Origin: a virus
Taxonomy: Duplodnaviria; Caudoviricetes
DNA length: 64,000 nucleotides
Strand: one strand, 5' to 3'
Virus record (IMG/VR): IMGVR_UViG_3300027672_001612
Coordinates: 1 to 64,000 of that record
This document shows, one piece after another, positions 23,249 to 51,042 of the stretch (the stretch's first letter is position 1; each line of letters begins with the position of its first letter). The position numbers were made by a program, and so were the translations under genes. Below the pieces are notes generated by a model, which was given only the letters and a program-made list of their open reading frames with translations, was not told the DNA's origin and made no database searches.

Positions 23249-23548
23249 ATGGCTAAAGAGGCAGTAAAAACAAGAACGTCAACGGAACTTCGATATCCTT
23301 CCAGATTTAATGTTGTTATATATAACGATGACTTTACTCCTGTAGAGTTTGTTATAACTTTGTTAATAGAGATATTTAATAAAAATATTTCTTCAGCAAA
23401 AACATTAACGCAAACCGTACATTCAGACGGACAAGCAGTAGCCGGAACATATAACTCAGAGATTGCTGAACAGAAATGTTTAGAGGCAGTTGCAGTATCC
23501 AGATCAGCCGGGCATCCTCTACAACTTAAAGTTGAAAAAATAGGATGA
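23249..23548 (+). CDS. clpS: N-degron adaptor ClpS
   Basis: [30 protein letters not shown]. Confidence 0.93.
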
Positions 23549-25002
23549 GCATTGATAACCTCAATACTAGCAAATACGAACAAGGCTTCGATACTAAAGT
23601 AGAAGCGGACAGTTTGCCGCCTGGATTAGATGAAGAAACTGTAAGAAAGATTAGTGCTATTAAAGAAGAGCCAGAATGGTTACTGGACTTCAGATTAAAA
23701 GCATTTAAGAGATGGCTTACTATGGACGAGCCTAATTGGAGTGAGCTAACTTATGTGCCTATTGATTACCAAGCACTTAGTTATTACTCCGCACCTAAGT
23801 TTTTTGAAGAAGGTGATATTCCACAAGAGATTTTAGATACGTTTGAAAAGTTAGGTGTCCCATTACACGAACGTGATGCATTACTTGGTTTAGATACAAC
23901 TAAAACTGTAGACGAAAGCAAGATCCCATTAGTAGCCATTGATGCAGTATTTGATAGTGTTAGCATCGCTACTACATTCCAGAAAGAATTAAAGAAACAC
24001 GGTATTATATTCAGTAGTATCAGTGAAGCAGTAAAAGAACATCCAGAACTAGTTAAGCAGTATTTAGGCACAGTTGTACCATACACTGACAACTACTTTG
24101 CTACACTGAACTCTGCGGTGTTCACAGACGGTACATTTGTATACATTCCACCTGGCGTTAGATGTCCTATGGAGTTAAATACATACTTCCGTATTAATGC
24201 TCGTAACACAGGACAGTTTGAACGCACACTTATTGTAGCAGATGCAGACAGCTTTGTTAGTTACTTAGAAGGTTGTACAGCGCCAGCATATGATGAGAAC
24301 ACCCTACATGCGGCGGTTGTGGAGCTCGTAACACACGATAGAGCAGAGATCAAGTATAGCACAGTACAAAATTGGTATGCTGGAGATGAGAATGGTGTGG
24401 GAGGAGTTTATAACTTCGTGACCAAACGAGCCATGTGTAAAGGTGTAGACAGTAAAGTAAGTTGGACTCAAGTTGAAACAGGTAGTGCTATCACATGGAA
24501 GTATCCTAGTTGCATACTTAAAGGCGATGGTAGTATCGGCGAGTTCTTCAGTGTTGCAGTTACCCAAGGTAAGCAACAAGCAGATACTGGCACCAAAATG
24601 ATACACTTAGGAAAGAACACAAAGAGTACTATTATATCCAAAGGCATTAGTTTTGGAGATAGTACAAACACATATAGAGGATCAGTCAAAGTAAATCCTG
24701 GTGCTCACAATGCTCAGAACTTTACCAAGTGCGATAGTTTAATGTTGCAAGACAGTAGAGCATTAACCATCCCTTACATCACATGCCAAAATGATAGTGC
24801 TAAGATAGAGCATGAAGCAAGTGCTGGAAAGATTAGTGAAGAGCAATTATATTATTTACAAAGTAGAGGTCTCAGCGAAGACGATGCTATGAATCTAGTT
24901 GTTAATGGATTCTGCAAAGATGTATTCCAAAAGTTACCATTAGAATTTGCCGCAGAAGCAAATAAACTATTAAGTGTAACACTGGAAGGCGCAGTAGGAT
25001 AA
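23545..25002 (+). CDS. sufB: Fe-S assembly scaffold SufB
   Basis: [54 protein letters not shown]. Confidence 0.97.
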
Positions 25003-25005
25003 ACA

Positions 25006-25034
25006 TTGACAACAAATAACAAAGGTAGTACAAT
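25006..25034 (+). promoter_or_regulatory. Leaderless sigma70 promoter of sufC
   Basis: TTGACA-N17-TACAAT-N6-ATG. Confidence 0.75.
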
Positions 25035-25040
25035 ACACAC

Positions 25041-25739
25041 ATGCTAAAATTAAAAAATTATACAGTTGAAGGAATATTCGAAGATGTTAGTTTAACATTT
25101 GAAGCTGGCAAAACTTATGTCATAATGGGCAGTAACGGTGTAGGCAAAAGCACACTGATACACAGTCTAATGGGTAAGCCAGGACTACCAGAAGCAACTG
25201 GTTGTGCAAGTTTTCAAGGTAGCGATATTAACGCACTAGAAACAGACGAACGTGCTAGACTAGGCATGTTTGTAGGATTCCAAGCACCAACAAGTATTCC
25301 AGGTCTAAGTAACTTTCAATTTATTAAACAAGCAACTGGTCTTAAAGTAACAGACATCAAAGAGTCTTTAGGCAAGTTTAAAGAATTCGCTAACACATTA
25401 GGTTTACCAAATGATTGGGATAAACGTAATCTTAACACAGATGCAAGTGGCGGCGAAAAGAAAAAGAACGAACTAATCCAAATGCTAATGATGAATACAA
25501 AGTTAGCAATGTTAGATGAACCTGATAGTGGACTAGACGTAGACGGAATTAAAGCATTAACATCAGAACTAAATGCATGGCGTACAGAAGACAATACTTT
25601 GATTGTAGTAACACATTACGACAAACTAATTACAGGATTGAATCCTGACGCTGTTATTGTTTTACAAAAAGACGGCGCTATTAAAGGTGACCAAACTTTA
25701 GCAGACAAGATTTTTGCTGATGGGTTCGAAGGTGTATAA
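25041..25739 (+). CDS. sufC: Fe-S assembly ATPase SufC
   Basis: GSNGVGKST, ERARLG, SGGEKKKNE, LDEPDSGLDVD, VTHY. Confidence 0.93.
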   Translation: MLKLKNYTVEGIFEDVSLTFEAGKTYVIMGSNGVGKSTLIHSLMGKPGLPEATGCASFQGSDINALETDERARLGMFVGFQAPTSIPGLSNFQFIKQATGLKVTDIKESLGKFKEFANTLGLPNDWDKRNLNTDASGGEKKKNELIQMLMMNTKLAMLDEPDSGLDVDGIKALTSELNAWRTEDNTLIVVTHYDKLITGLNPDAVIVLQKDGAIKGDQTLADKIFADGFEGV

Positions 25740-27006
25740 AACTTTATTCGGGCAATCACTGTTAAGCCAGCAAACCAATGCAGAAGAGTTCCATAAATTA
25801 GAAGACTATGTTGATTACGTTACCTCTAATAATTTTATAGATGAACTACCACACTCTTACTGGGCCAATATACTCCCACAGTTAAAAAAGACGTATGAGA
25901 CTAACATACTATCTTTAAAGGATACTGGACTACCTACTAAACGTAGTGAGCAGTTTAACTTTGCAAACATACATAAACTGTATGATATTGATATCCTAAG
26001 TGCTGAATCAGATAAAGATAGTTATGACGTTATAGAACGTTTTAGTTATTTGAACGGTAAGACTAAGTCTATTGTATTAAACGACAGCAGAGTATTTACA
26101 TCAAATGATTTAGGTAAACGTAGTCCGTTTAACATACAGATATTAGATAGTGTTAATACTAATAAGAACAGACAAAGCGAATATGTAAAACTACTAAAGC
26201 AACAAGATAACTTTAGTAAAGTAACATACGCTCTTTCACCTTTCCCTAACATAATTATATTCCCTAATGGTAGTAACGATACGTTTAATAAAAATCCTGT
26301 TACAGTCCAGTATAGGAACAGCAGTGATGAACCTAGACTAGAGTGCAACACAACTATTTTTGATGTACAATACAATGCTAAAGTACATTTAAAAGAAGAT
26401 GTTAAAACTACAGCAGGACAAATGAATTACAGCATGTATGTTCTTAGAGAAAACTCAGAACTAACAATAGAGCGAACAACAAACGATTACGGTGGATGGA
26501 ATATATTTGATAGTGTATTCATTTGCCACCCTGGAAGTAAACTAACAGTTAAGTTTACAAACACAGGAAGCCAGTACACACAAGAAAACTTTTACATTGA
26601 TAGTAGCAGTAAAACCTCAGTTGAAATTATTGGCAGAAACGAAATTTATAAAGGCAATCAGTATCACCAATATGTGTATCAGAAAAGCAATGATCCTGAT
26701 AACTATAGTTGTATTGATATTCGTAATGTTGGTAAAGAATATGCATCAACTAGTTTTATAGGCAGGTATGATGTTGGACCACTAAGCACAGACTTTGATG
26801 GTACAATGAACAACCAGAATTTAATGCTAGATAAAAATGTTACTATGCATACTAGACCAGTATTAGATATCCATACAAAAGAAATCAAGTGTCAGCATGG
26901 TTGCACCGTTAGTAATGTTAACGAAGACCATATGTATTATTTACAAAGTAAAGGTGTTGATAGAGTAACCGCATCAGAGATGCTAATAGAGAGTTTTTTA
27001 TGTTAA
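25714..27006 (+). CDS. sufD: Divergent SufD
   Basis: GLPTKRSEQF, NQNLML, TRPVLDIHTKEIKCQHGCTV, YYLQSKG; lies between sufC and sufS; start uncertain. Confidence 0.82.
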   Translation: MLMGSKVYKTLFGQSLLSQQTNAEEFHKLEDYVDYVTSNNFIDELPHSYWANILPQLKKTYETNILSLKDTGLPTKRSEQFNFANIHKLYDIDILSAESDKDSYDVIERFSYLNGKTKSIVLNDSRVFTSNDLGKRSPFNIQILDSVNTNKNRQSEYVKLLKQQDNFSKVTYALSPFPNIIIFPNGSNDTFNKNPVTVQYRNSSDEPRLECNTTIFDVQYNAKVHLKEDVKTTAGQMNYSMYVLRENSELTIERTTNDYGGWNIFDSVFICHPGSKLTVKFTNTGSQYTQENFYIDSSSKTSVEIIGRNEIYKGNQYHQYVYQKSNDPDNYSCIDIRNVGKEYASTSFIGRYDVGPLSTDFDGTMNNQNLMLDKNVTMHTRPVLDIHTKEIKCQHGCTVSNVNEDHMYYLQSKGVDRVTASEMLIESFLC

Positions 27007-28232
27007 GAGTATATCCCAAAGCGAAACAGATTAATGAAATTAGGAATTGTTTTCCTAGTTTAGCATATACTGAATTAGCATATTTAGATAACGCCGCCAG
27101 TTCACAAACTGTAGACAGTGCAATTAAGGCTGTGAGTGATTATCATTATAACTACAGAGCCAATGTGCATAGAGGTGATTTTTATACTAGCGGAATTGCT
27201 AGTGAGAAGTTTGACCAAGCAAGAGAAGAAGTTGCTAAACTAATTAACTGCGACATATCTGAGATTGCATTTACGGCAGGCACAACAGATGGCTTAAATA
27301 TTATAGCAGATTTTTTAAATGACGACAGAACAGTAATACTCACAGAGCTAGAACATCACAGCAATATCCTTCCTTGGATGAAGCATGACAAAACTGCAAA
27401 AAACGGTAAGTTAGTTATAGTGCCAGCAAGTGATCACGGTGATGTAAGTATAGCAGATTTCCAAAGAGCAGTCGAAAATAATCCTGGGAGTGTTGTATCG
27501 TTTCTAACACAAAGTAATTTAACTGGAATGAACACACCATGGCAAGAAATGGTACGCATTGCTAAAGCAAATGATTGTGAAGTTGTTATAGATGCTTGTC
27601 AAAGTATTGCACACAAACAAATTGACTTACAAGCAAACAACATTGACTGGCTGGTATTTAGTGGACATAAGATGTATGCTAGTACAGGATCAGGTGTGTT
27701 GTTTCATAGAGGCGGATTTAGTGAAGTACATGGACACGGCTTAGGTGGTGGAACTGCTGAGTTTGTTAGTTTCGACGAATACAATTTGCATGGAGACTTT
27801 GAACGTATTGAAGCAGGTACTCCAAACGTAGCAGGCGTACACAGTATTGGCGCCGCGGCAAAATGGATTAATGAAATTGGATACAAAACTATACAAGAGA
27901 ATGAAGCAGAGTTTTTTAATATGCTTAGAGACAAAGGATTGTTTGAGATTGAAGGATTAAAACTTATTGGACCGTTGGGACCTAGAAGCGTTTATAGTTT
28001 TGTAACAGAAATGTGTAACCCTAGCGACTTAGCAGGATTTTTAAGTTTCGATAAAGTATGTGTAAGGACGGGCCATATGTGTGCCCAGCCTGCCAGTAGG
28101 CGTTACAACAACAAAGAAACTGGTGTATTCAGAGTTAGCTCTGGCCCATACAATAATGAATTAGACTGTGTTAAATTAGTGGAGGGAATATGGAAAGCGG
28201 TAGACAAGATGACAGCCTCGAAGACCAAATAG
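27000..28232 (+). CDS. sufS: Cysteine desulfurase SufS
   Basis: YLDNAASSQ, ANVHRG, EHHSN, SGHKMY, EAGTP, RTGHMCA. Confidence 0.95.
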   Translation: MLRVYPKAKQINEIRNCFPSLAYTELAYLDNAASSQTVDSAIKAVSDYHYNYRANVHRGDFYTSGIASEKFDQAREEVAKLINCDISEIAFTAGTTDGLNIIADFLNDDRTVILTELEHHSNILPWMKHDKTAKNGKLVIVPASDHGDVSIADFQRAVENNPGSVVSFLTQSNLTGMNTPWQEMVRIAKANDCEVVIDACQSIAHKQIDLQANNIDWLVFSGHKMYASTGSGVLFHRGGFSEVHGHGLGGGTAEFVSFDEYNLHGDFERIEAGTPNVAGVHSIGAAAKWINEIGYKTIQENEAEFFNMLRDKGLFEIEGLKLIGPLGPRSVYSFVTEMCNPSDLAGFLSFDKVCVRTGHMCAQPASRRYNNKETGVFRVSSGPYNNELDCVKLVEGIWKAVDKMTASKTK

Positions 28233-28528
28233 TTGACCAAGTAGTCGCTAACTTAAAAAGAGTATTCGACCCTGAGTTACCACTCAACATATACGACCTA
28301 GGACTAATTTATGCAGTTAAGTTAAACCAAGAGTTTGATTGTACTGTAGACATGACACTAACCTCCCCTAACTGCCCGGCGGCTGAGATATTGCCTATGG
28401 AAGTAGAGTTTGCAACACGAAGTGTAGAAGGTATTAATAAAGTGCATGTACATTTAACTTTTGATCCACCATGGAATCCTGATACAATGGTAAGCGATGA
28501 GGGTAAATACGCTCTAGGAATTTTGTAA
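28190..28528 (+). CDS. sufT: SufT/DUF59 Fe-S maturation factor
   Basis: VFDPELPLNIYDLGLIY, MTLTSPNCP, FDPPW. Confidence 0.92.
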   Translation: MESGRQDDSLEDQIVDQVVANLKRVFDPELPLNIYDLGLIYAVKLNQEFDCTVDMTLTSPNCPAAEILPMEVEFATRSVEGINKVHVHLTFDPPWNPDTMVSDEGKYALGIL

Positions 28529-28824
28529 TGAGTAAGTTCTCCAAAGAAGAATTAGAAAACAGTAAACGAATATTTAAAAGCGCCACACCTAAACAAGACC
28601 TTAGCTGGTATGTTAAGTGGATAGCTAGTTGTTTCATATTAAGCAGTATGAGTATTAGAGGTATCGAAGGCTTACAAATATATGACTTGGTCCTAAGTTT
28701 AATAGGTGTAACAGGTTGGATGATCGTAGGTATACTTTGGAAAGACAGAGCATTAATGTTGCTCAATGGAGTAGGTATTATTTTATTTTTAAACACTTTA
28801 GTTAGATATTTGGTGGGTGCATGA
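28528..28824 (+). CDS. Small three-TM membrane protein
   Basis: WYVKWIAS..GW..VGILWKDRAL. Confidence 0.75.
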   Translation: MSKFSKEELENSKRIFKSATPKQDLSWYVKWIASCFILSSMSIRGIEGLQIYDLVLSLIGVTGWMIVGILWKDRALMLLNGVGIILFLNTLVRYLVGA

Positions 28825-30320
28825 GCATTGACGTTCGAGCATTAGAAACAGACACCGGCAAAATAATAGATCTAGCAATTCCTCAATACGGCGAACGAGG
28901 TGAACACCAGCAATGGCTTATACCTAGTAATATTCCTGGTCATGCACACCCGTTAATAATGAGCAACGATCCATACTATAGAAGAAATATAGGTGCCAAA
29001 GACCAAATTAAGATGGAGCACCAAATAATAGCAGTAGACTTGTTCATACCCACTAGTGGATACAGTAATTGGAGTGCAATTGGTAACTTGTACATAGACC
29101 ATTCTCTAAGACCACAACAACTAGATTTCCTAATGAGCTTCTTTGAAAATTGGGAAGATTTAAATTGTGTATTACTTATAAGTTTTTGTGATGAAAGTCC
29201 AGAGCTATCATTAGTATTAGAAACAGTTTATAGTCTAATGGCAATTTACGAAATACCCCATGAAAGAGTAAAGTTTACAGGACACAATTTTGCTGGGCAA
29301 GAAGTACTTACTACTTTTGCTAAAGAGAATGGCGAAAAGCCACTTACTTACATTGTAAATTGGTGGATGATAGGTCACCTTGACACAACTCATGTAGAAG
29401 CTCTAGTAGAACGTAGTTACCTACCCAAAGAAACCGGACGACTTGATCAAACATATATGTTGAATCCTGTAGATATGACACCCAAAAACAATACGTTTGT
29501 TTTCCTTAACAGACGAGAAACAGACAACAGACTAGCATTGCTATACCTATTATGGCAAAAGGGTGTTAAGCATGTAGAAAGTATAATAAGTGCATTTCCA
29601 CCGTTAAGACTATTTGCTATAAAACCAGGTGAAGACACCGGTGAACGTAATCACTACACTACTATATTCTTTAAAAGTATGTTAAGGGATCTTGTGCCGT
29701 CGACAGCCACAGAACATACTGATGTAGACACACTAAACTTCAAAACCGAAATGAAGTTAGGCAAATCAATACCAGGCGATCATCCATTTATTGGAGATAC
29801 TGAATCAAGGTCCGCTCCCAATATGGATGATGCATACATTTGGCTAACTTGTGAAAGCACTAGCGACTTAAAAGAGAAAAACTTTTTCTTTACTGAAAAA
29901 GTATTAAAGCCTATGGTGTACGGACAAGCATTAGTAGTGTTTGCACAGCCTGGATTTGTTAAAGCATTTAAGTCGTTGGGATTCCACACACTATGCGAGG
30001 AGTATGGCATAAGTGAGGAGTACGATAATGTTGAAGATGATGCTCAACGCATAGATATGATTGCAGAAGAAATAATTAAAGTAGGATCTATTCCTTTACT
30101 AAAAATGCATGAAATACATGCAACACTAGAAGACAAAATTAAAGAGAATAAAAAGCGTATGTGGTTAATGTTAAGTAACATACCAAACCCAGAAGCTTTT
30201 GTGTGGCAAGCCCACAACTCTATGATATCACAAATACACGAACACATACCATACAACACCGAAGAATCGTTAAAACTATACAAAGATTATTGGGACTTGG
30301 ATATGGTAGAAACTAAATAG
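28821..30320 (+). CDS. GT-B/GT10-like phage protein
   Basis: FVFLNRR, CES..FFTEKVLKPM, SLGF, EYDNVEDDAQR. Confidence 0.55.
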   Translation: MSIDVRALETDTGKIIDLAIPQYGERGEHQQWLIPSNIPGHAHPLIMSNDPYYRRNIGAKDQIKMEHQIIAVDLFIPTSGYSNWSAIGNLYIDHSLRPQQLDFLMSFFENWEDLNCVLLISFCDESPELSLVLETVYSLMAIYEIPHERVKFTGHNFAGQEVLTTFAKENGEKPLTYIVNWWMIGHLDTTHVEALVERSYLPKETGRLDQTYMLNPVDMTPKNNTFVFLNRRETDNRLALLYLLWQKGVKHVESIISAFPPLRLFAIKPGEDTGERNHYTTIFFKSMLRDLVPSTATEHTDVDTLNFKTEMKLGKSIPGDHPFIGDTESRSAPNMDDAYIWLTCESTSDLKEKNFFFTEKVLKPMVYGQALVVFAQPGFVKAFKSLGFHTLCEEYGISEEYDNVEDDAQRIDMIAEEIIKVGSIPLLKMHEIHATLEDKIKENKKRMWLMLSNIPNPEAFVWQAHNSMISQIHEHIPYNTEESLKLYKDYWDLDMVETK

Positions 30321-30352: not shown

Positions 30353-30937
30353 ATGGCAGTAGAGATGACAATACCAGAAGTTAGCTGGTTACGAAGAAAA
30401 ATCCCAGAAGGACAAACTGATTACGATTGGGTAGGACAAACATCCACCGATATCTTTAAAGACAAACGAGTTGTAGTGTTCGCACTACCAGGTGCATTTA
30501 CACCAACTTGTTCAAGTACACATTTACCAGGATACGAAGCAAAATACGAAAACATCTTAGAACAAGATGTAGACGAAGTATATTGTCTTAGTGTAAACGA
30601 TTCATTTGTAATGAATGCATGGTTTAGCTCAATGGGAATTGAGAATGTGCAACCTATTGCAGATGGCAATGGAAATTTTACTCGCCAAATGGGTATGCTA
30701 GTTAAGAAAGAAGCAGTAGACTTTGGAATGAGAAGCCAGCGTTATAGTATGGTAGTAGACAATGGCAGAGTTGAAATGATTTTTTGTGAAGAAGGCAAGG
30801 AAGATAACTTTGCTGGCGATCCTTTTGAAATTAGTGATGCAACTTCTATGCTTAATTATCTAGAAGCAGTTAAAGATATCCGCAGAGAAGAAATTGCAAA
30901 GGCTGAGGCTGATGAAGAAGATACAGCTAATACTTGA
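30353..30937 (+). CDS. Peroxiredoxin (Prx5/redoxin type)
   Basis: PGAFTPTCS, SVNDSFVMNAW, RSQRYSMVV. Confidence 0.93.
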   Translation: MAVEMTIPEVSWLRRKIPEGQTDYDWVGQTSTDIFKDKRVVVFALPGAFTPTCSSTHLPGYEAKYENILEQDVDEVYCLSVNDSFVMNAWFSSMGIENVQPIADGNGNFTRQMGMLVKKEAVDFGMRSQRYSMVVDNGRVEMIFCEEGKEDNFAGDPFEISDATSMLNYLEAVKDIRREEIAKAEADEEDTANT

Positions 30938-33602: not shown

Positions 33603-34814
33603 ATGAAACTAGCTATTACTGGTGTTGGTATAGTCTCGCCTTTAGGCAATACACTCTCCGAAAATATAGATAATTTAAAGGCTAAAAAGGTTCCTATAAC
33701 TGATTATAGACCACAAGGTCATTTCAGTGATTGGATTTTAGAAGTAGAGAAAGCATTCCATTGCAACTACGATGATGTAAATGCGGAACATCTTATTAAA
33801 ACTAAAGACAGACGTTGGATAGATCCAACTGTAGTTAGCAGTATGATAGCAGTAGATGAAGCAGTTACAATGAGTGGTCTAGACTTGCCACATGACACAC
33901 CTGTAGTAGTGGGAACTATTAGAGGAGGTGCTCCAAACTTAGCAAGATATGGTCAAACACTACATCAACACAAACGCAAAGTACACCCTCAAATACTGTT
34001 AAGTAGCTCACTAGAGTACGTTAGCAATCATATAAGCAGTCATTACAAATTACATGGCCCAAGCCTAGCAACTAGCGGAACGTGTGTCAGCGGCTTACAA
34101 GCACTAGACATTGCTAAAAAGTACATGCAAACTGAAGGATACACTAGTTGTATCGTGGGTGGCACAGACTTTATGACCAGTTCGATGAGTACAATATACT
34201 TCCAGTTACTAGGTGCAATTAGCCCAACAGGCAAAAGTGTCCCATGGGACGAAAGTAGAGACGGTTTTGTAATGGGAGAAGGCAGTGTGTATCTAGTAGT
34301 AGAACCATTAGAACTTGCACAAGAGCGTGGAGCAGATATACGTTGGGTAGTTGATGGGTTAGGTATAGCAAATGACGGAGCCCATGCAACCCAGCCAGAT
34401 TTAGAAGGCACTGGAGCCAGAATTGCAATAGATAAAGTATTTAAGCAAGCCGGTACAACAGCAGAAGATTACACAGTTTTAAATGCACATGCCACAAGCA
34501 CACCATTTGGTGATCCTGTAGAGTATAACGTGTTGAAAGATTACTTTCCAGAAGGAAGTCACTTGTACGGTAACAAAGGACAAGTGGGCCATATGATGGG
34601 TGCTAGTGGACTTGCAGAAATAGTGTTAGGTGCAGAGGCAATGATAGATGGATTTGTGCCAGCAAATGCAGGATTAGAAAATCCGTTTACAGATGATGGA
34701 CATTTTGATTTATTAACAGAAGTTAAAGAAAAAACATATACTAGAATGTTTAAAACTAGTTTTGGATTCGGCGGACGTAGTGCGGCGGTGAGTATAACTA
34801 GTGACTCCGAATAG
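33603..34814 (+). CDS. fabF: Beta-ketoacyl-ACP synthase (FabF/FabB-like)
   Basis: ITGVGIVSPLG, GTCVSG, RDGFVMGEG, NAHATST, GHMMGASG, SFGFGG. Confidence 0.9.
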   Translation: MKLAITGVGIVSPLGNTLSENIDNLKAKKVPITDYRPQGHFSDWILEVEKAFHCNYDDVNAEHLIKTKDRRWIDPTVVSSMIAVDEAVTMSGLDLPHDTPVVVGTIRGGAPNLARYGQTLHQHKRKVHPQILLSSSLEYVSNHISSHYKLHGPSLATSGTCVSGLQALDIAKKYMQTEGYTSCIVGGTDFMTSSMSTIYFQLLGAISPTGKSVPWDESRDGFVMGEGSVYLVVEPLELAQERGADIRWVVDGLGIANDGAHATQPDLEGTGARIAIDKVFKQAGTTAEDYTVLNAHATSTPFGDPVEYNVLKDYFPEGSHLYGNKGQVGHMMGASGLAEIVLGAEAMIDGFVPANAGLENPFTDDGHFDLLTEVKEKTYTRMFKTSFGFGGRSAAVSITSDSE

Positions 34815-35967: not shown

Positions 35968-35979
35968 AGGTGCTACAAT
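35951..35979 (+). promoter_or_regulatory. Leaderless sigma70 promoter
   Basis: TTGACA-N17-TACAAT-N6-ATG. Confidence 0.75.
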
Positions 35980-38328: not shown

Positions 38329-38330
38329 TC

Positions 38331-39927: not shown

Positions 39928-39954
39928 ATATTTAATAAATAACCAGGAACAAAA

Positions 39955-40164
39955 ATGAATTATAGTATTACAGTACCAATGGAAAAGGGCGATTCGCTTA
40001 AAGCAATTAAATCTAACTCAGCACTAACTGATATGACTTTAATTATTAACGATGGATGGGCAACGTTTATCGGCTCAGCAAATACCCCAGAAGAGTTTGA
40101 AGCTGATTTAATAGACAGTATAGAAGATTTACCAGCACCAGTTACAGCAGTGGAAGTATGGTAG
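39955..40164 (+). CDS. Hypothetical protein
   Basis: AGGA SD, TAAATA upstream. Confidence 0.6.
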   Translation: MNYSITVPMEKGDSLKAIKSNSALTDMTLIINDGWATFIGSANTPEEFEADLIDSIEDLPAPVTAVEVW

Positions 40165-40165
40165 C

Positions 40166-40387
40166 ATGATTATTCCAGCCTCACACGAAGCAATTCATAT
40201 TATATGGGAATTAGAACATGAGATGCTTAATCCTAGAAACTGTGGTTATACAGGAATGGATATGAAGAAGAGGTTATGGGATATTAAGATGCGAGTTGAC
40301 GAGGCATTACTAAAAGCGCCGCCATACTACGGTGAACCAGAGTATGAAGATATTTACTTGCTGGAAAGGATAAAAGGTAATATATGA
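40166..40387 (+). CDS. Hypothetical protein
   Basis: Tiling ORF. Confidence 0.65.
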   Translation: MIIPASHEAIHIIWELEHEMLNPRNCGYTGMDMKKRLWDIKMRVDEALLKAPPYYGEPEYEDIYLLERIKGNI

Positions 40388-41175
40388 AACTAGGTATAAT
40401 TGGTAAAGGATTTGTAGGATCAGCAGTTAGCAACGGCTTTAATGATGACGTTGAACAGATAATTGTGGATCCAGAATTTACTAACAATATAATTTATGAC
40501 CTTGTGGTATTTGATCCTATTATAACGTTTGTGTGCGTTCCTACGCCTGTTTCTGAGGATGGTAGTTGCGATGTAAGTATTGCTAGAAGTGTGTTACAAG
40601 AGCTCAATGAGCTTCAGTACAAGGGTGTAGTAGTTATTAAGAGTACTATTGTGCCTGATTACTTACATGAGTTTAAAAAGGCGTATGGACTAAGGATAGT
40701 ATATAACCCAGAGTTCCTTACAGAAGCGAATGCAAATCAAGACTTTATTAATCCTAAAATGCAAGTGTTAGGTGGCAGATGGAAAGATTGTGAAGTAGTA
40801 GAAAAAGCATACTTAAGAAACAGTAAAGTTAAAGTAGTACCAACGTTTAAAACAGATTTAACCACAGCAAGTTTACTAAAATACACTATCAATAGTTACC
40901 TTGCTACCAAAGTAATGTTTATGAATGACATATACAAACTACACCAAGCAGGCAGTAGTATGGTAAGTTGGGATCAGTTTACAGACATGCTAACCAGAGA
41001 CCCTCGTATGGGAGATAGTCATATGCAAGTGCCTGGCCCAGATGGAGAGTTTGGATTTGGTGGGCATTGTTTCCCTAAAGATACAGAAGCATTATTAAAA
41101 TATGCACACGACAAAAAGATAAAACTTAGTACACTGAAAAACGCAGTGGAACACAATAAGAAAATAAGAGACTAA
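40384..41175 (+). CDS. UDP-glucose/GDP-mannose dehydrogenase family protein (lacks C-terminal domain)
   Basis: GKGFVG, CVPTP, IKST, YNPEFL, KY..N, GFGGHCFPKD. Confidence 0.88.
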   Translation: MKLGIIGKGFVGSAVSNGFNDDVEQIIVDPEFTNNIIYDLVVFDPIITFVCVPTPVSEDGSCDVSIARSVLQELNELQYKGVVVIKSTIVPDYLHEFKKAYGLRIVYNPEFLTEANANQDFINPKMQVLGGRWKDCEVVEKAYLRNSKVKVVPTFKTDLTTASLLKYTINSYLATKVMFMNDIYKLHQAGSSMVSWDQFTDMLTRDPRMGDSHMQVPGPDGEFGFGGHCFPKDTEALLKYAHDKKIKLSTLKNAVEHNKKIRD

Positions 41176-42330: not shown

Positions 42331-42358
42331 TTGACTTTCTAGATAATTGTGTTATACT
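42331..42358 (+). promoter_or_regulatory. sigma70-type promoter of amtB
   Basis: TTGACT-N16-TATACT. Confidence 0.65.
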
Positions 42359-42390
42359 ATGTATTCCAAAAACTAAAAAGGAGAGAAGAT

Positions 42391-43563
42391 ATGGAATTAG
42401 CATATTCGTTAAACACGTTTTACTTTCTGTTATCCGGCGTACTAGTTATGTGGATGGCGGCAGGATTTACTATGCTCGAAGCAGGTTCTGTGAGAAGTAA
42501 AAATGTAATAGAGATTTTACTAAAAAACGTAGCACTATATAGTGTTGCATCATTAACATTTTTAATCGTAGGCTATAGCATTATGTATGGTTGGGGAGAT
42601 ATATCTACACATTCTGTGTATGCTGATTTCTTTTTCCAAGTTGTATTTGTAGCCACAGCAATGTCTGTTGTATCAGGTGCAGTAGCAGAGCGTAAAAAAC
42701 TGTGGACATTCTTATTGTTCGCGGCAATCTTCACAGCAATCATTTACCCTATACAGGGTTCGTGGTCGTGGGGTGGAGGCTGGTTAAGTGAAAGAGGATT
42801 CTTTGACTTTGCTGGTGCAGGAATAGTACATATGGCAGGTGCCACTGCGGCATTGGCTGGTGTGTTAATACTAGGTCCTCGTAAAGGTAAGTATGCTAAA
42901 GACGGCACACCTAAACCAATACACGGTTCTAATGCGGCTCAGGTTGCTCTAGGAACACTTATCTTATGGATGGGGTGGTTTGGCTTTAATGGCGGTTCAC
43001 AACTTGCAATCTCTGGAATAGAGAATGCTGATGCAGTTGCAAAGATATTTGTTAATACAAATACTGCGGCGGCGGCTGGACTAATTACTGCAATGGCTGT
43101 ATGTAAACTATGGCTAGGTAAAACTGCCTTAAATGCTTCAATGAATGGTGCCTTAGCTGGCTTAGTAGTTATTACTGCTGATCCACTTACACCTTCACCA
43201 ATAATTGCTGTAATATACGGAGCAATTGGCGGACTAATAGTTCCGTTTGCAATGAGTTATATTGAGAAGAAAGGAATAGACGATCCTGTAGGTGCTATTA
43301 GTGTTCACGGTGTTGCTGGTATAGTAGGACTCATGTTAGTTCCTATACTAAATGTTGATGCAAGTTTCTTAGAACAAGCAATCGGCATTGGTGTAATCGG
43401 TGGATTCGTATTTAGTACTTCGTACCTTGTATGGCTCTTACTTGATAAGACCGTAGGTATTAGGGTAGGCGAGCAAGAAGAAGTCGGTGGTTCGGACATG
43501 TGGGAAGCTGGTGAAAAAGCATATCCATACTTTATGAAAGGACACGGCGAAGAAGAAAAATAG
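42391..43563 (+). CDS. amtB: Ammonium transporter
   Basis: SGAVAER, DFAGAGIVH, WFGFNGGS, NGALAG, DDPVGAISVHG; AAGGAG SD before ATG 42391. Confidence 0.96.
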   Translation: MELAYSLNTFYFLLSGVLVMWMAAGFTMLEAGSVRSKNVIEILLKNVALYSVASLTFLIVGYSIMYGWGDISTHSVYADFFFQVVFVATAMSVVSGAVAERKKLWTFLLFAAIFTAIIYPIQGSWSWGGGWLSERGFFDFAGAGIVHMAGATAALAGVLILGPRKGKYAKDGTPKPIHGSNAAQVALGTLILWMGWFGFNGGSQLAISGIENADAVAKIFVNTNTAAAAGLITAMAVCKLWLGKTALNASMNGALAGLVVITADPLTPSPIIAVIYGAIGGLIVPFAMSYIEKKGIDDPVGAISVHGVAGIVGLMLVPILNVDASFLEQAIGIGVIGGFVFSTSYLVWLLLDKTVGIRVGEQEEVGGSDMWEAGEKAYPYFMKGHGEEEK

Positions 43564-43878: not shown

Positions 43879-44394
43879 ATGTGGGAGAAACTATTTTGGT
43901 GGTTAGCCAAACGTAGAGGTACAGAAACACTAACCAACATATACACAGACAGTGAATATATGCACAGAGTATTCCTAGGACGCCAAATCCATAAGGACGG
44001 AATAGCTGGAGCATATGGTGGTGGAAGAGTCTGTCTAAATTTAATAACAGGTAGCGACTTACCTGTAGAGCATAATCACCCTTGGGGTTACTTTACTCTC
44101 ATACTGTCGGGAGGATACTATGAGGTTAGAGGAGAGGAACGTAAGTGGCGCAGACCTGGATGGTGTGCTATAAGGTCACATAACGATTTCCATAGAGTTG
44201 AAATCCCTGAAGGTAAATTTGCTATAACATTCTTTGTAAAAAGTCGACATGGGAAAATGGGTTCATACTTTATGGACAATGGCAAACCCGTTAAAGATTT
44301 AAAATTCTGGTTACGCAGAGGCATAGCTAGAGAAAAAATTGGAGCAATGATTAAACTTAAGACTCCAGAGGAAATAATAAATGACAACGATTGA
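43879..44394 (+). CDS. Cupin-fold protein
   Basis: HNHPW..TLILSGGYYE..FHRVE. Confidence 0.75.
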   Translation: MWEKLFWWLAKRRGTETLTNIYTDSEYMHRVFLGRQIHKDGIAGAYGGGRVCLNLITGSDLPVEHNHPWGYFTLILSGGYYEVRGEERKWRRPGWCAIRSHNDFHRVEIPEGKFAITFFVKSRHGKMGSYFMDNGKPVKDLKFWLRRGIAREKIGAMIKLKTPEEIINDND

Positions 44395-45325
44395 TAATAT
44401 TCTAGCAATCACACCAGGCGAAGGAGAAATCTCAGATTGGTTTATTGAACGACTAGAGGTTTTAGTAGAGCAAGGACTGTTCCTAGATGCTAACCATGTT
44501 CTAGGCGTTAGAGAATCTATAGTGGATAGTTTAAAAGAATATAGTAACAAACACAATATAAATTCTGTTGTAGTAGGCATGAGCGGAGGCATAGATAGTG
44601 CCTTAACTGCCGCACTATTCAAACAAGCCGGATGGCAAGTACATGGCTTAACTATGCCTATACATCAAATCGAAGATGAAACTAATAGAGCAATAGAGAA
44701 CATCGATGCATTAAGATTAGAACGACACCACATAGACTTATCAGATCAGTTTGATAATATGCAAGAAAAACTAGGTGCATTCGATAGTACATACAGAGGA
44801 CTACAGCGTCAAGGTAATATTAAAGCAAGACTACGAATGATTGCATTGTATAATCTTGCACACGAAGTACAAGGTCTTGTAGCAAGTACAGATAACTTTA
44901 GCGAATTAGCCGCAGGTTTTTGGACACTACATGGTGACGTAGGCGACCTTGCACCTATACAAAGTTTAAGCAAAAGTTGGGAAGTTCCTGCCTTGGCAAT
45001 GGACCTCGGAGTACCCGAAAACACTATACATGCATTGCCTACAGACGGTTTAGGCATAAGTACTAGCGATGCAGACCAATTGGGAATGAACTACTTAGAG
45101 TTTGATGTGTTGTTAACAGACATGCTTAACCTACCAAAAATAGACGATAAGAGCATATACGAATACATAAATACTATAGATGATGAAGATGCCAAAGAAA
45201 AAGCTATGCTTGTTTTTGGTAGAGTTAAGATGACCGCATTTAAACGTGCTAATCCTTTTAATATTTTTCATCCTGTATACAGCGACAGATTCGCTAAACT
45301 AGACAAACTAGATAGGAGTTTATAA
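44381..45325 (+). CDS. nadE: NH3-dependent NAD+ synthetase
   Basis: GMSGGIDS, GNIKARLRM, TDNFSE..GFWTLHGD, PTDGL. Confidence 0.92.
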   Translation: MTTIDNILAITPGEGEISDWFIERLEVLVEQGLFLDANHVLGVRESIVDSLKEYSNKHNINSVVVGMSGGIDSALTAALFKQAGWQVHGLTMPIHQIEDETNRAIENIDALRLERHHIDLSDQFDNMQEKLGAFDSTYRGLQRQGNIKARLRMIALYNLAHEVQGLVASTDNFSELAAGFWTLHGDVGDLAPIQSLSKSWEVPALAMDLGVPENTIHALPTDGLGISTSDADQLGMNYLEFDVLLTDMLNLPKIDDKSIYEYINTIDDEDAKEKAMLVFGRVKMTAFKRANPFNIFHPVYSDRFAKLDKLDRSL

Positions 45326-45656: not shown

Positions 45657-47543
45657 ATGAAAAAGAAAATTGTTTTAGTTCAACCTAATTTTAAGATAGG
45701 TGGCGGTAGTTTTACCGGTTATTGGTTACCGTACTCTGTAGGTTGTCTTTGGAGTTATGCAAGTCAGCACTCTTGGGTAACAGACGAATTTGAAGTACAA
45801 GACATAATATATAAGAGAGAAGCGCCTGAACAACTAGTTGATAGATTACTAGATTGTACAGTAGCGTTTTTCTCTTGTTATATGTGGAATTGGGAATACA
45901 ACAAATACATAGCCAAAGAACTAAAAAGACGTAACCCAGCGATTGCGATTGTATTCGGTGGACCACAAGTTACAACACGCCCTAAACAGGAAAAATTCTT
46001 CCTAAATCATCCATATGTAGACAGCATTAGCCTTACCGAAGGGGAAGAATCCTTTGTGGCTATACTTGATGCATTAAGGAACGACAATGCTTTACAAGAC
46101 GTCTACGAGGGTCTAAGGCTAGATGATTTAGAGGTACCTAGCCCTTACTTAACTGGCGTATTCGACAAGATTATGGCAGAGTCAGACCCTAACGAACAAT
46201 GGAACGGCACACTAGAAACTAATAGAGGCTGTCCGTTTGCATGTACTTTTTGCGATTGGGGTAGTTTAACGTATGCTAAAATTAAGAAGTTTCCTATGCC
46301 TAAAGTGTTACAAGAGTTAACATGGATGGCAGAGAACAAGATAGACTATGTTACTATTGCTGACGCAAACTTTGGTGTGTTCACAGACAGAGACTTAGAA
46401 GTAACTAACACACTTGTTGACTTACAAAACACATACGGTTATCCAAAAGTTGTAGATGCTACATGGTATAAGAACAGTAGCGATGAAATATTAGAGATTG
46501 TTAAGAAGTTTATTAGCAGTGGATTTAATAGAGGACTAACATTAAGTGTGCAAAGCATGGACATGGATGTTCTAGAAGAGATTAAAAGACGTAACATGGA
46601 AATGTCAGACTTAACTATGATTTTTGACAAGTGTAATAGAGAAGGCATACCAAGTTATACAGAACTTATTTTAGGCTTACCACTAGAAACATTTGAATCT
46701 TGGAAGTCAGGACTATGTGAAGTTATTAAAGCAGGACAACATAATGCTATTGAAAGTTGGTTAGCACAGATGTTAGAAAATGCACACATGAACTTACCAG
46801 AAGAAATTGAGAAGCATGGTATAACTACAGTTGTTGTGGAAAACTATGTTAGTGGATTCGAAGAAGAAGACAACATACCTGAAAAAGTATCATTAGTTAC
46901 CGGCACAAAATATATGCCTAAACCAAAGTTTATTGACAGTTGGTTATATGCATGGGTAGTTAACAACTTCCATAATTATGGTTGGAGTCAAGCACTAGCA
47001 AGAGTTATATATAAATTGAATGGTACTGAGTATGAAGAAACATACGATAAAATGTATCAAGCATGTATAGACGACACTGGCTTAGTTGGTGACCTATTCC
47101 GTACAGCTAAAGAACAACTTACATATTACTTAGAGACAGGTAGAAGTGATGGCGAAGGAAGAGAAAGCTTCAGTGGGCACACATTAATGTGGGAAGCTCA
47201 AAAAGACTTTCACTTGAATAGCAACGCAGTTAAGTCGTTTGTAAAAGAACACATGACTCCAGAGTATTGTAACATGGATCCTGTTATGTACCAATACCTA
47301 TTAGAATTTCAATCCAACTATACAACTGAAGAAAGCACAGACTATCCATTCCAATCAGCACCCGGTTTTAATTTTTATGAATACATAAACAACATAGAGC
47401 CAGAGCTAGTAATGACACTAGAGCCTTACCAATTTAACATAGCAGAAGATGTTAAAGGTGATGAATATTACAATCGACTTTACTTTAGACGTAGACAAGG
47501 TTGGGGCAAAACAATCATTGGCAAAAAACTCACTATAAGTTAA
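45657..47543 (+). CDS. B12-binding-domain radical SAM enzyme
   Basis: GGPQ, EGE, ETNRGCPFACTFCDWG, DANFG, ELILGLP.ET. Confidence 0.92.
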   Translation: MKKKIVLVQPNFKIGGGSFTGYWLPYSVGCLWSYASQHSWVTDEFEVQDIIYKREAPEQLVDRLLDCTVAFFSCYMWNWEYNKYIAKELKRRNPAIAIVFGGPQVTTRPKQEKFFLNHPYVDSISLTEGEESFVAILDALRNDNALQDVYEGLRLDDLEVPSPYLTGVFDKIMAESDPNEQWNGTLETNRGCPFACTFCDWGSLTYAKIKKFPMPKVLQELTWMAENKIDYVTIADANFGVFTDRDLEVTNTLVDLQNTYGYPKVVDATWYKNSSDEILEIVKKFISSGFNRGLTLSVQSMDMDVLEEIKRRNMEMSDLTMIFDKCNREGIPSYTELILGLPLETFESWKSGLCEVIKAGQHNAIESWLAQMLENAHMNLPEEIEKHGITTVVVENYVSGFEEEDNIPEKVSLVTGTKYMPKPKFIDSWLYAWVVNNFHNYGWSQALARVIYKLNGTEYEETYDKMYQACIDDTGLVGDLFRTAKEQLTYYLETGRSDGEGRESFSGHTLMWEAQKDFHLNSNAVKSFVKEHMTPEYCNMDPVMYQYLLEFQSNYTTEESTDYPFQSAPGFNFYEYINNIEPELVMTLEPYQFNIAEDVKGDEYYNRLYFRRRQGWGKTIIGKKLTIS

Positions 47544-47560: not shown

Positions 47561-47568
47561 TATAAATA
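47561..47568 (+). promoter_or_regulatory. T4-late-type promoter
   Basis: TATAAATA. Confidence 0.75.
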
Positions 47569-47572
47569 CAAC

Positions 47573-47752
47573 GGAAGTTAAGCAATCCCCCTTCCACAAG
47601 AGGACGGTTGATATAGGTGTCGGTTGTTCCGGTGAGTATCCGGTGTAGTTTCGCAATATGACAGACAGCATTACGAGCCTATGAGTACTATAAAAGTTAA
47701 GGAACTTTAACCCCTCAGCATTGTCCGTAAGGAGATGTGAATTTGGGTGCTA
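47573..47752 (+). ncRNA. Candidate large structured leader RNA
   Basis: Nested stems GGAAG/CTTCC, GAGG/CCTC, ATAGG/CCTAT, TGTC/GACA, CCGG/CCGG, GTTAAGG/CTTTAAC, TCC-GTAA-GGA. Confidence 0.55.
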
Positions 47753-47781
47753 ATTAAAATATTAGACTCAAGGAGAGTAAA

Positions 47782-47958
47782 ATGACAAGTATTATTTTAA
47801 ATACGAAGTCATTCTTTCAAAATATTGCAAACAGTTGGACCGGATTCAAAGACAATTATTGTCCTGAAGGTCAAACTTGCAATGACATTGCTACTATAGG
47901 TGGACTTATTTTCACTGTATGGTTTATGTACATTGCTATGGAACCAATACTGAGATAG
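47782..47958 (+). CDS. 58-aa membrane peptide (not in the track)
   Basis: AAGGAG SD; MTSIILNTKS..YCPEGQTC..GGLIFTVWFMYIAMEPILR*. Confidence 0.75.
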   Translation: MTSIILNTKSFFQNIANSWTGFKDNYCPEGQTCNDIATIGGLIFTVWFMYIAMEPILR

Positions 47959-48021
47959 AATTAGACTGAATATACTATAACTATAAAACATGAATATCTT
48001 TAGGATATTCTCCCAAGTTTT

Positions 48022-48050
48022 AGGGTTCGCGGTTGCGGACCCTTTTTTTT
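48022..48050 (+). terminator. Terminator
   Basis: AGGGTTCGC-GGTT-GCGGACCCTTTTTTTT. Confidence 0.85.
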
Positions 48051-48140
48051 GGCTAAAATTTGTATAAATACTTACTCTATAAGGACTCGGAGTCTTTTTG
48101 GGAAAACAAACACAGTAGGATGTGTACACAGGAGTAAAGT

Positions 48141-49657: not shown

Positions 49658-49686
49658 TTGACAACAGACAATAAAGGTAGTACAAT
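49658..49686 (+). promoter_or_regulatory. Leaderless sigma70 promoter of sufE (26/29 nt identical to the sufC promoter)
   Basis: TTGACA-N17-TACAAT-N6-ATG. Confidence 0.75.
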
Positions 49687-49692
49687 AACACC

Positions 49693-50079
49693 ATGCACAA
49701 AGAAGAAGACTTACAGTTTCTAAACGAGTTAGAACCTAGCGAACTTTACGATTATATCGTAGAGCGTGGGGACAACATAGTTGAGTCCAAAGAGGACCTT
49801 ACAGCACTATGCACAAACGAACATAGAGTGTATGGCTGTCAAAGCCTTGTGTGGGTTGCAAGAAACGATAACGACTGGCAATGGGAAAGTAATGCATATT
49901 TTGTGCAAGGCTTAATTAACATTGTTATGACTCATGTAGTTAACATGACAGATGAAGAGATTGCTGAACTAGAGTTAAGCAAATTTGAATTTATTTGTGG
50001 TGAGAAAGTAACATGGGGAAGGGTAAGAGGCATTGAAAGTTTCTTGCAAAAATTAAAAACAATAGTAACGGAGAAATAA
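49693..50079 (+). CDS. sufE: Sulfur acceptor SufE
   Basis: RVYGCQSLVWV, ESNAYFVQGL, R.RG. Confidence 0.85.
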   Translation: MHKEEDLQFLNELEPSELYDYIVERGDNIVESKEDLTALCTNEHRVYGCQSLVWVARNDNDWQWESNAYFVQGLINIVMTHVVNMTDEEIAELELSKFEFICGEKVTWGRVRGIESFLQKLKTIVTEK

Positions 50080-50667
50080 ATGAATTTTGTACCATATGTA
50101 ATAGAGAAGACATCACAAGGCGAACGTAGTTACGACATCTACAGTAGATTGCTCAAAGAAAGAATAGTATTTTTAAATGGTGAGGTGAACGATGCAGTAT
50201 CAAATAGTATTTGTGCTCAGTTCCTATTCCTAGAAGCAGACGATCCTGACGCTGATATTAATTTTTACATTAACTCTCCTGGTGGAGCAGTAACTAGTGG
50301 CATGGCTATATACGATACTATGCAATACATTAAACCCGCTGTAAGCACTATTGTAATGGGACAAGCGGCTAGTATGGGTTCATTCCTTGCTAATGCTGGC
50401 GCTCCTGGTAAACGTTTTATGTTACCTAATGCTAGGCACATGATACATCAGCCATTAGGCGGTGCAAGTGGACAAGCAAGTGACATTGAAATCCGTGCTA
50501 AAGAGATTGTTCGTATTAAGAAAGAACTTACTGATATATACGTTAAGCATAACAACAAGGGCAAAACTTACGAAATATTTGAGAAAGCTATGGATAGAGA
50601 CAACTTTTTGTCCAGTTCAGAAGCACTCGAAATGGGCCTTGTTGACGAAATTATTGAACAAAGATAG
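50080..50667 (+). CDS. clpP: Clp protease proteolytic subunit
   Basis: [32 protein letters not shown]. Confidence 0.97.
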
Positions 50668-50679
50668 ATAAGTAATAGT

Positions 50680-51042
50680 ATGGAATTATTAAAAACATTC
50701 AATCCAGACAACGTTATTACATTTACAGAATCTGCAACAGAACATCTAGTATCACAGGTAAAAGCCAGTGAAGGCGCAATTGGTGTAAGTCTTGGGCTAA
50801 TGCCTAATGGCTGTGCAGGGTTTGAATACAAATGGGATATAGTTACTGAAGTAGAAGACGGTTATAAAGAACACATGATAGGTCCTTACTTGTTTCTGTT
50901 AGATGAGAAAAGTGAAGACTTCCTTGCAGGCAGTGAAGTAGACTTAGTTAATGAAGGATTAAAAGGGAAGACACTAGTAGTTAAGTCTCCAAAAGCATCC
51001 GGAGAGTGTGGGTGCGGGGAGTCGGTAACATTTGATGTCTGA
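50680..51042 (+). CDS. sufA: A-type Fe-S carrier (SufA/IscA)
   Basis: GCAGFEY ... CGCGES; TAAGTA-N5-ATG. Confidence 0.9.
   Translation: MELLKTFNPDNVITFTESATEHLVSQVKASEGAIGVSLGLMPNGCAGFEYKWDIVTEVEDGYKEHMIGPYLFLLDEKSEDFLAGSEVDLVNEGLKGKTLVVKSPKASGECGCGESVTFDV

Follow-up and report, generated by a model that had tools for sequence, protein, structure and literature searches.

The window analyzed here is a 64,000-nucleotide stretch comprising the first 64 kb of the 109,775-bp IMG/VR virus record IMGVR_UViG_3300027672_001612 (CheckV completeness ~30%), and it encodes a near-complete SUF system of iron-sulfur (Fe-S) cluster assembly in two loci. Gene identities were assigned from the open reading frame (ORF) listing and from profile searches with Pfam and with NCBIfam equivalog models and their cut-offs. 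Locus 1 is a co-oriented, tightly packed block encoding ClpS, SufB, SufC, SufD, SufS, and SufT (positions 23249-28528) that continues to the end of a peroxiredoxin gene at 30937. Locus 2, 21 kb downstream, encodes SufE, ClpP, and an A-type Fe-S carrier (49693-51042). A preliminary description of this DNA had placed sufB, sufC, sufD, sufS, and sufT at 23545-28528 and sufE and sufA on either side of clpP; profile searches confirmed all of these genes at those positions and identified the ORF at 23249-23548, unnamed in that description, as ClpS.

All genes of the two loci lie on the plus strand. Directly upstream of the cluster is a gene for an Hsp20 small heat-shock protein (22665-23120; PF00011, 60.9 bits), a position kept in independent assemblies. 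The putative ClpS adaptor (23249-23548) matched PF02617 with 83.5 bits (cut-off 23) and scored under the cut-off of every NCBIfam ClpS equivalog; the stop codon of its gene overlaps the sufB start (ATGA). The SufB scaffold subunit (23545-25002) scored 814 bits with NF008773 (cut-off 717) and is 62% identical to Escherichia coli SufB. The SufC ATPase (25041-25739), at 232 amino acids, is of a short form found in at least 100 clusters in metagenomes and scored 217.3 bits with TIGR01978 (cut-off 212.8). SufB and SufC are therefore both above equivalog cut-offs. The SufD scaffold subunit (25714-27006; start at 25720 according to gene callers) is full length (430 amino acids) and strongly diverged, with 112 bits against SUFBD_core and 110 bits against the sufD model TIGR01981 (cut-off of 222 not reached) versus 48 bits against the sufB model. 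SufS, a type II cysteine desulfurase (27000-28232), scored 292 bits with Aminotran_5 and 302 bits with its best NCBIfam match, TIGR01979 (cut-off of 475 not reached), and matched SufS/CsdB among PDB sequences. The SufT-like DUF59 protein (28190-28528) matched PF01883 (57 bits), TIGR02945 (121.5 bits; cut-off of 143 not reached), and DUF59 proteins of the PDB. Two further genes are coupled to the cluster, one for a small hydrophobic DUF6552 protein (28528-28824; PF20189, 72.5 bits) found at the same position in 11 related contigs and one for a 499-residue protein (28821-30320) conserved only in viruses, with homologues 34-54% identical at the same position in relatives. The latter had no Pfam or PHROG match, and its Atlas neighbors were all viral hypothetical clusters, with a weak glycosyltransferase-10 lead (0.79). 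The peroxiredoxin (Redoxin/AhpC-TSA; 30353-30937; PF08534, 94 bits) is the final conserved gene of the block and is syntenic in 17 relatives.

At locus 2, the SufE sulfur-transfer protein (49693-50079) scored 53.9 bits with PF02657 (cut-off 27) and 45 bits with NF006792 (below 160), with SufE matches in the PDB. Between sufE and the carrier gene lies that of the ClpP protease subunit (50080-50667; PF00574, 267 bits; NF001368, 307 bits, above cut-off). The SufA/IscA-like carrier (50680-51042) scored 34.1 bits with PF01521 (cut-off 26.3) and 71.5 bits with TIGR01997, below cut-off, and neither the SufA nor the IscA equivalog model reached its cut-off. We call SufD, SufS, SufT, SufE, and the carrier diverged because their scores exceeded Pfam gathering thresholds yet fell below NCBIfam equivalog cut-offs.

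Alignment of each protein to its counterpart from the annotated E. coli K-12 genome (E. coli numbering) revealed intact catalytic and ligand residues throughout. SufB retains R226, N228, C254, Q285, W287, K303, C405, E432, H433, and E434, as do 21 of 21 viral copies. Also kept are K40, Q85, D170, E171, and H203 of SufC (Walker A Lys, Q-loop, Walker B Asp-Glu, and H-loop; 20/20 viral copies), C358 and H360 of SufD (12/12), and H123, K226, R359, C364, and R379 of SufS (18/18). The functional roles of the SufB and SufD residues have been described (Yuda et al. 2017, PMC5571166); in SufB, C254 accepts sulfur, C405 and E434 belong to the cluster site, and others line the tunnel. Among the SufS residues are the pyridoxal phosphate Lys (K226) and the catalytic Cys (C364). 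The SufE equivalent of C51 (Cys49) is present in a GCQS motif, and the carrier has the equivalents of SufA C50, C114, and C116. Thus, the intact motifs reported earlier hold for all mapped residues, in the window and across the viral clade. An AlphaFold2 model of SufD (pLDDT 85, pTM 0.86) gave E. coli SufD structures (5awf_B and 2zu0) as best Foldseek matches over the full length (TM-scores of 0.68-0.73, 412 columns), and the model supports a full-length SufD fold for the window protein.

The window therefore shares with E. coli SUF (SufABCDSE; PDB 5AWF and 2ZU0) all six components with their mapped residues, the core order sufB-sufC-sufD-sufS, and the full-length SufD fold. The single stress-regulated sufABCDSE operon of E. 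coli was not found in the window, where the genes are phage-encoded, fall into two loci 21 kb apart, include an internal promoter-like site before sufC, and are interleaved with clpS at the operon head and with clpP between sufE and sufA; sufS is followed by a SufT/DUF59 gene. SUF systems in general are not defined by how their operons are laid out. The window SufC is 16 residues shorter than that of E. coli and 38% identical to it, and identity is 31% for SufS and 25% for SufD. Promoters also differ, those predicted in the window being sigma-70 consensus-like with leaderless starts.

Several lines of evidence place the SUF block in a phage genome. Phage genes lie on both sides of it, and elsewhere on the record are genes for a family-B DNA polymerase of T4 type, a gp44-like clamp loader, and a tail-fiber-like protein, together with those for ClpX, a ClpA-like unfoldase, and DnaJ. 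Composition is uniform along the window, with a G+C content of ~37%. Homologues of 108 of the 149 ORFs of the record occur in conserved order on a 339,794-bp viral contig (91% complete; hereafter the 340-kb relative). On this contig, PHROGs clearly identified a major head protein of gp23 type, a portal, a large terminase, and a tail sheath, where Pfam models for tail sheath and Terminase_6C had returned either no match or one below threshold. No capsid or terminase gene is present on the 109,775-bp record itself. The closest cultured phages by DNA polymerase (40-46% identity) are jumbo myoviruses, namely Sinorhizobium phage Phosso, Vibrio phage 2.275.O, Atu_ph07, SCTP-2, and Rak2-like Klebsiella phages; none of these was among the SufB matches in deposited phage genomes. 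The exact SufC protein of the window is recorded on 31 contigs, the longest of 340,740 bp, and the index places this protein in 105 blocks of the collection. Gene order from Hsp20 through ClpS, SufBCDST, DUF6552, and the 499-residue protein to the peroxiredoxin is identical in four independent assemblies (three from ENA, one from JGI), and a host-phage chimera is on this ground excluded as far as sequence data allow. The record is best explained as part of a jumbo contractile-tailed phage with a genome of ~340 kb and T4-like replication and morphogenesis genes.

Scanning IMG/VR with SufB returned 27 contigs, 20 of which show the order ClpS-SufB-C-D-S-T(-peroxiredoxin) as far as the contig extends. 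Across these 20, identity to the window ranges from 72 to 93% for SufB, 33 to 87% for SufC, 27 to 79% for SufD, and 28 to 75% for SufS. In a maximum-likelihood tree, SufB of the window and the 20 related contigs formed one clade (SH-aLRT 100). No near-identical bacterial locus was found: among 591 bacterial SufB relatives from a scan of one genome per prokaryotic species, the best was 65% identical to the window, and the top 80 were spread over Cyanobacteriota, Burkholderiales/Nitrosomonadaceae, and Acidobacteriota, with the closest at 61-65%. This scatter over several phyla yielded no bacterial donor, in a sample picked by SufB similarity and with a cellular SufC and SufS search that was not exhaustive. 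Pairwise ratios of nonsynonymous to synonymous substitution rates between the window and two relatives were 0.08-0.09 for sufB, 0.14-0.17 for sufC, 0.10 for sufD, 0.13 for sufS, and 0.11-0.16 for clpS; all five genes are under purifying selection. By these sequence comparisons, the SUF set is old, vertically inherited, and functionally constrained. The long residence proposed in the preliminary description, as opposed to fresh capture, agrees with the monophyly of viral SufB, its distance from bacterial SufB, purifying selection, and shared synteny. The clade is diverse and present in many metagenomes, including Tara Oceans samples.

Divergence from bacteria is uneven among the components. For SufB, identity is 63-79% between bacterial phyla and 58-64% between viral and bacterial proteins. 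The corresponding values are 57-70% and 36-39% for SufC and 39-66% and 30-33% for SufS, and for SufD, at 30-46% between bacterial phyla, the viral and bacterial proteins share only a local match of ~80 residues. SufB has thus been held near the bacterial form, and SufC, SufD, and SufS have either drifted or come from an unsampled source. SufD is indeed far more diverged than SufB, as first remarked, but as an unusual sign this does not stand: SufD is always the least conserved SUF protein, and the unusual divergence is that of SufC and SufS.

SUF genes in other viruses were surveyed by an alignment-based scan, which gave 115 viral contigs with SufB, and by local profile searches on 62 of them outside the clade of the window. 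At least 15 of the 62 carry contiguous SufB-SufC-SufD-SufS-SufE(-SufT-SufA) operons with a shortened SufD ORF, mostly of 143-195 and up to ~285 amino acids, on contigs of up to 235 kb (miniature-SufD contigs L241, L246, L247, L251, L254, L260, L279-L284, L287-L289, L293, and L297). They resemble the window in having contiguous SUF genes on viral contigs and a SufB in the same virus-dominated part of the tree. They differ in the shortened SufD, compared with 430 residues in the clade of the window, in having SufE, SufT, and SufA within the operon, and in a ClpS that is not fused to it; the miniature SufD implies a different scaffold architecture. The expectation that phages usually carry single components agrees with the literature. 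This contig is not alone in having a full SUF set, given at least 20 related contigs with ClpS-SufBCDST and at least 15 others with shortened-SufD operons. SufB alone was found on at least 22 of the 62, and a few more have partial sets. Viral contigs with SufB but no adjacent SufC, SufD, or SufS include L025, L026, L029, L032, L238-L239, and L242-L244. One solo SufB, on a 289-kb T4-like contig (L028), is nested among Burkholderiales and Nitrosomonadaceae sequences and looks recently captured. Host-like solo SufB has likewise been reported in amoC-encoding jumbo phages of 155-338 kb (preprint, bioRxiv 10.64898/2026.06.18.733297), to which L028 may belong. Those phages share with the window the presence of SufB in a large genome, but theirs is a recent host-like single gene, whereas the window SufB belongs to a deep virus-only clade and is accompanied by SufC, SufD, SufS, SufT, SufE, and SufA.

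A FastTree analysis of 168 SufB sequences placed 74 on one side of a branch with support of 95, 73 of them viral. The sole "cellular" member, solo SufB on a 7.9-kb contig of a metagenome-assembled genome (L091; NHCU01000066.1, "Betaproteobacteria bacterium TMED41"), is nested among viral contigs carrying SufB alone and is therefore probably a misbinned phage contig. Because the tree was fast and the bacterial sample biased, a single ancient origin of viral SufB is a lead rather than a result. Deposited phage genomes (50,697 records searched with SufB and SufS) offered no usable precedent; matches came from host DNA flanking prophages in Staphylococcus, Listeria, and Enterococcus records, from gut contigs without annotation, or from Microcystis phage MaAM05/PhiMa05. 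In the MaAM05 record (MW495066.1), sufB-sufC-sufD-sufS-iscU at 255792-273876 lie beside panB, panC, pxpA, and a gluconeogenesis factor gene. This neighborhood looks cellular, in agreement with the dispute in print over the viral status of the MaAM05/PhiMa05 genome.

Linkage of SUF to Clp genes is conserved in the lineage. In 20 of 20 related viral contigs, clpS is the gene immediately upstream of sufB, whose start it overlaps in the window, and ClpS is near SUF genes in 8 other viral loci of differing layouts. On one of these (L286, 47% G+C), ClpS is followed by SufS and peroxiredoxin (1241-3548), with a SufA-like gene and SufB further along. None of 80 bacterial sufB neighborhoods contained ClpS. 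A second conserved block, sufE-clpP-(sufA), occurs in 17 related contigs, 10 of which gave a SufE match and 9 a carrier match. SufE and its Cys are retained in the 340-kb relative; the carrier slot of this genome (bases 107950-108304, minus strand) holds an unrelated 118-residue protein whose C-terminus is rich in Cys (CGTPECCGEC). According to a preprint (bioRxiv 10.1101/2024.11.01.621566), the chloroplast proteins SUFB, SUFC, and SUFD associate with CLPS1 and are degraded by Clp as substrates, and by this analogy a functional link between ClpS and SUF is plausible in the phage. The two cases share a SUF scaffold tied to ClpS and ClpP but differ in that the plant link is post-translational, between products of unlinked genes, whereas that of the window is one of synteny resembling gene fusion. 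Conserved linkage to ClpS, ClpP, Hsp20, peroxiredoxin, and a ferritin-like protein suggests that SUF sits within a program of proteostasis and oxidative-stress response run by the phage.

Promoter-like sites precede three of the genes, all on the plus strand. Sigma-70-like promoters of the form TTGACA-N17-TACAAT, matching consensus at 11 of 12 positions, end 6 nucleotides before the ATG of sufC (25006-25034) and of sufE (49658-49686), so that both transcripts would be leaderless. A further site, TTGCTT-N17-TATAAT (23185-23213), lies 35 nucleotides before the clpS ATG; it was read directly, its -35 hexamer being too weak for listing by the scan. At the sufC site, both hexamers and their distance to the ATG are kept while the spacer varies in 12 of 12 contigs of the window subclade with a recovered sufC start, and this pattern speaks for a genuine leaderless promoter inside the cluster that the host RNA polymerase would recognize. 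The sister subclade instead has overlapping sufB and sufC (TAATG) behind a Shine-Dalgarno sequence. T4 late promoters were considered and rejected, TATAAATA not being enriched in the window (5 found versus 9 expected). The phage-style promoters of the preliminary description thus gave way to sigma-70 consensus-like sites with leaderless starts. Two of the five TATAAATA boxes fall in a gap without a plus-strand ORF of at least 60 amino acids (47561-48070), which also contains a strong terminator-like hairpin (48022-48043; 9-bp stem with six GC pairs, followed by a T run).

Candidate recipients of Fe-S clusters are also encoded on the plus strand of the window. A ferredoxin with a 4Fe-4S motif (CX2CX2CX3CP) and a DUF3470 domain (6342-6692; Fer4, 27.6 bits; DUF3470, 21.6 bits) is a likely client, as is a B12-binding radical SAM enzyme (45657-47543; PF04055, 40.5 bits; PF02310, 37.2 bits) with CX3CX2C at residue 192, predicted to hold a [4Fe-4S] cluster. 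A ferritin-like protein (14116-14556; PF00210, 56.9 bits), 77% identical in the 340-kb relative, is a possible iron store, and the ClpX unfoldase is encoded at 11650-12921 (zf-C4_ClpX, 62.5 bits; AAA_2, 95.8 bits). Profile matches thereby confirmed the ferredoxin, radical SAM enzyme, ferritin-like protein, and peroxiredoxin noted at the outset. Demand for [4Fe-4S] clusters appears high in the lineage because the 340-kb relative has 11 radical SAM matches, 8 above cut-off and 7 in one cluster. These seven genes stand in a row (bases 5000-14000) and may represent a large modification or natural-product-like cluster; the counterpart region is not on the record of the window. The rest of the record encodes FolE and QueD. 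A QueE candidate (record positions 108783-109703) had a sub-threshold radical SAM match only.

Collectively, these data lead us to propose, with a probability of roughly 0.7 that includes the assignment to a jumbo phage, that this lineage has long carried a self-contained SUF pathway that would supply clusters to phage and host Fe-S enzymes from within a phage proteostasis and stress module. The data show what the genes are, that their key residues are intact, that their context is viral, and that they have been inherited vertically under purifying selection; complex formation, activity, timing, and clients are predicted from sequence. The original suggestion that the phage makes Fe-S clusters on its own is to that extent supported by the near-complete gene set, the intact residues, and the candidate clients. 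In the proposed mechanism, host sigma-70 RNA polymerase would transcribe the genes from consensus-like promoters, in part as leaderless mRNAs. Pyridoxal phosphate-dependent SufS would take sulfur from cysteine as a persulfide on Cys361, and Cys49 of SufE would hand it to Cys244 of SufB. A SufB-SufC2-SufD scaffold, driven by the SufC ATPase, would then build the cluster at an interface between Cys396/Glu424 of SufB and His395 of SufD, and the A-type carrier and SufT/DUF59 protein would deliver it to apo-proteins of phage and host. Putative recipients are the ferredoxin and radical SAM enzymes, including a probable QueE, the sub-threshold candidate, for 7-deazaguanine DNA modification. Fe-S capacity would thereby be supplied once host gene expression fails.

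Several observations weigh against this proposal. SufD, SufS, SufT, SufE, and the carrier fall under NCBIfam equivalog cut-offs, even though they exceed Pfam gathering scores. SufC, SufS, and SufD, but not SufB, are further from bacteria than bacterial phyla are from one another, and these three proteins may have altered partners or an altered function. The A-type carrier is dispensable in the lineage, being absent from the 340-kb relative; the 110-kb record has only two radical SAM matches, one weak; and promoter-like sites as a class are no more numerous in these regions than expected by chance. The uneven divergence would be accounted for if the phage had no self-contained pathway and its conserved SufB plugged into host SUF or ISC while diverged SufC, SufD, and SufS served other roles, such as sulfur supply for tRNA or DNA thio-modification or the regulation or titration of host SUF components. 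The many viral contigs with SufB alone, those with miniature SufD, and the host-like solo SufB of amoC phages are in keeping with such an arrangement. We nonetheless consider it unlikely, as every clade copy examined retains all catalytic and ligand residues of SufC, SufD, SufS, and SufE, the SufD model predicts a full-length SufD fold, and the genes share synteny, are coupled in translation or transcription, and are jointly under purifying selection, as expected of a working complex. Far less probable still is that the block is cellular DNA, either a misassembled host fragment or a misclassified bacterial or organellar contig. The low completeness of the record, its lack of a capsid or terminase gene, and the preponderance of host flanks and the contested MaAM05/PhiMa05 among SUF-bearing deposited "phage" records would fit that explanation. 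It is largely refuted by the uniform composition, by flanking phage genes and collinearity with a 91%-complete genome bearing a full morphogenesis module, by a gene order repeated in four independent assemblies with ClpS-SUF order in 20 other viral contigs, and by bacterial homologues that are at most 65% identical for SufB and only 36-39% for the adjacent SufC.

A further explanation, which we hold to be possible but doubtful, shifts the emphasis from cluster supply to an iron-salvage and stress circuit. Here the phage Clp system (ClpS, ClpA-like unfoldase, ClpX, and ClpP) would break down the iron-storage and Fe-S proteins of the host, SUF, being tolerant of oxidative stress and low iron, would re-use the freed iron and sulfur, and ClpS would control SufBC2D turnover. 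E. coli Dps is a ClpS-dependent N-degron substrate. Both conserved Clp-SUF blocks argue for such a circuit, as do the other viral loci with ClpS near SUF, among them the ClpS-SufS-peroxiredoxin order of L286, the absence of ClpS from bacterial sufB neighborhoods, the accompanying ClpX, ClpA-like protein, DnaJ, Hsp20, ferritin-like protein, and peroxiredoxin, and the chloroplast precedent. Against it, the argument is one of gene neighborhood, the ClpA-like protein of the phage gave no Clp_N match, and the linkage may mirror only a shared early-expression block. We would put forward only tentatively that viral SUF includes ClpS and the Clp protease of the phage among its working parts. By means of ClpS, the ClpA-like unfoldase, and ClpP (and ClpXP), the phage would strip host Fe-S and iron-storage proteins of iron and sulfur and control its SufBC2D scaffold, and it would then rebuild clusters on its many radical SAM enzymes. 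If true, this would constitute a virus-run iron-salvage and cofactor-assembly circuit with no counterpart among bacterial operons.

A self-contained viral SUF pathway would extend what has been reported of Fe-S genes in phages. Marine viruses carry single Fe-S genes encoding an A-type carrier, IscU, SufE, NifU, PaaD/DUF59, or ClpP (PMC5332604, PMC8940887), and sufE occurs without sufS in marine phages (PMC8940887). Like the window genes, these are proposed to boost Fe-S supply for phage and host enzymes, often in T4-like genomes with many radical SAM genes (PMC5332604, PMC8940887). However, they amount to one or two genes that need host SufS and SufBCD, whereas in the window the desulfurase, transfer protein, ATP-driven scaffold, and carriers are all viral. 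No description of a complete viral SUF pathway was found in open-access papers and bioRxiv preprints, and Fe-S assembly is unmentioned in a marine jumbo-phage survey, a 2026 jumbo-phage review, and a paper on a new aquatic jumbo-phage lineage. Phage auxiliary genes are usually seen as patching single bottleneck steps, and here a complete multi-subunit cofactor-assembly pathway is encoded, which suggests that giant phages with many radical SAM enzymes are limited in their replication by the supply of Fe-S clusters. The diverged but residue-intact SufC, SufD, SufS, and SufE, along with the miniature-SufD relatives, constitute a natural set for probing minimal scaffold requirements. Moreover, the virus-specific ClpS-SUF linkage parallels the newly reported Clp control of the SUF scaffold in chloroplasts and offers a simpler system in which to test that idea.

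Other genes of the window lie outside these themes. A dense run of metabolic genes (33603-41175 and 44381-45325), most of them conserved in the 340-kb relative, encodes a beta-ketoacyl synthase, dCMP deaminase, TauD-family dioxygenase, gamma-glutamyl cyclotransferase-like protein, MazG, GMP reductase/IMPDH, UDP-glucose dehydrogenase fragment-like protein, nitroreductase, and NAD synthase. A 169-residue ORF (53332-53841), which matches no more than part of the NTPase domain of DNA polymerase III alpha (PF07733, 41 bits), could represent a dnaE gene that is split or a relic. Finally, a full-length ammonium transporter gene (42349-43563; PF00909, 302 bits) lacks a homologue in the 340-kb relative despite the collinearity of the two; it seems to have been acquired recently and might serve as a pointer to the host.

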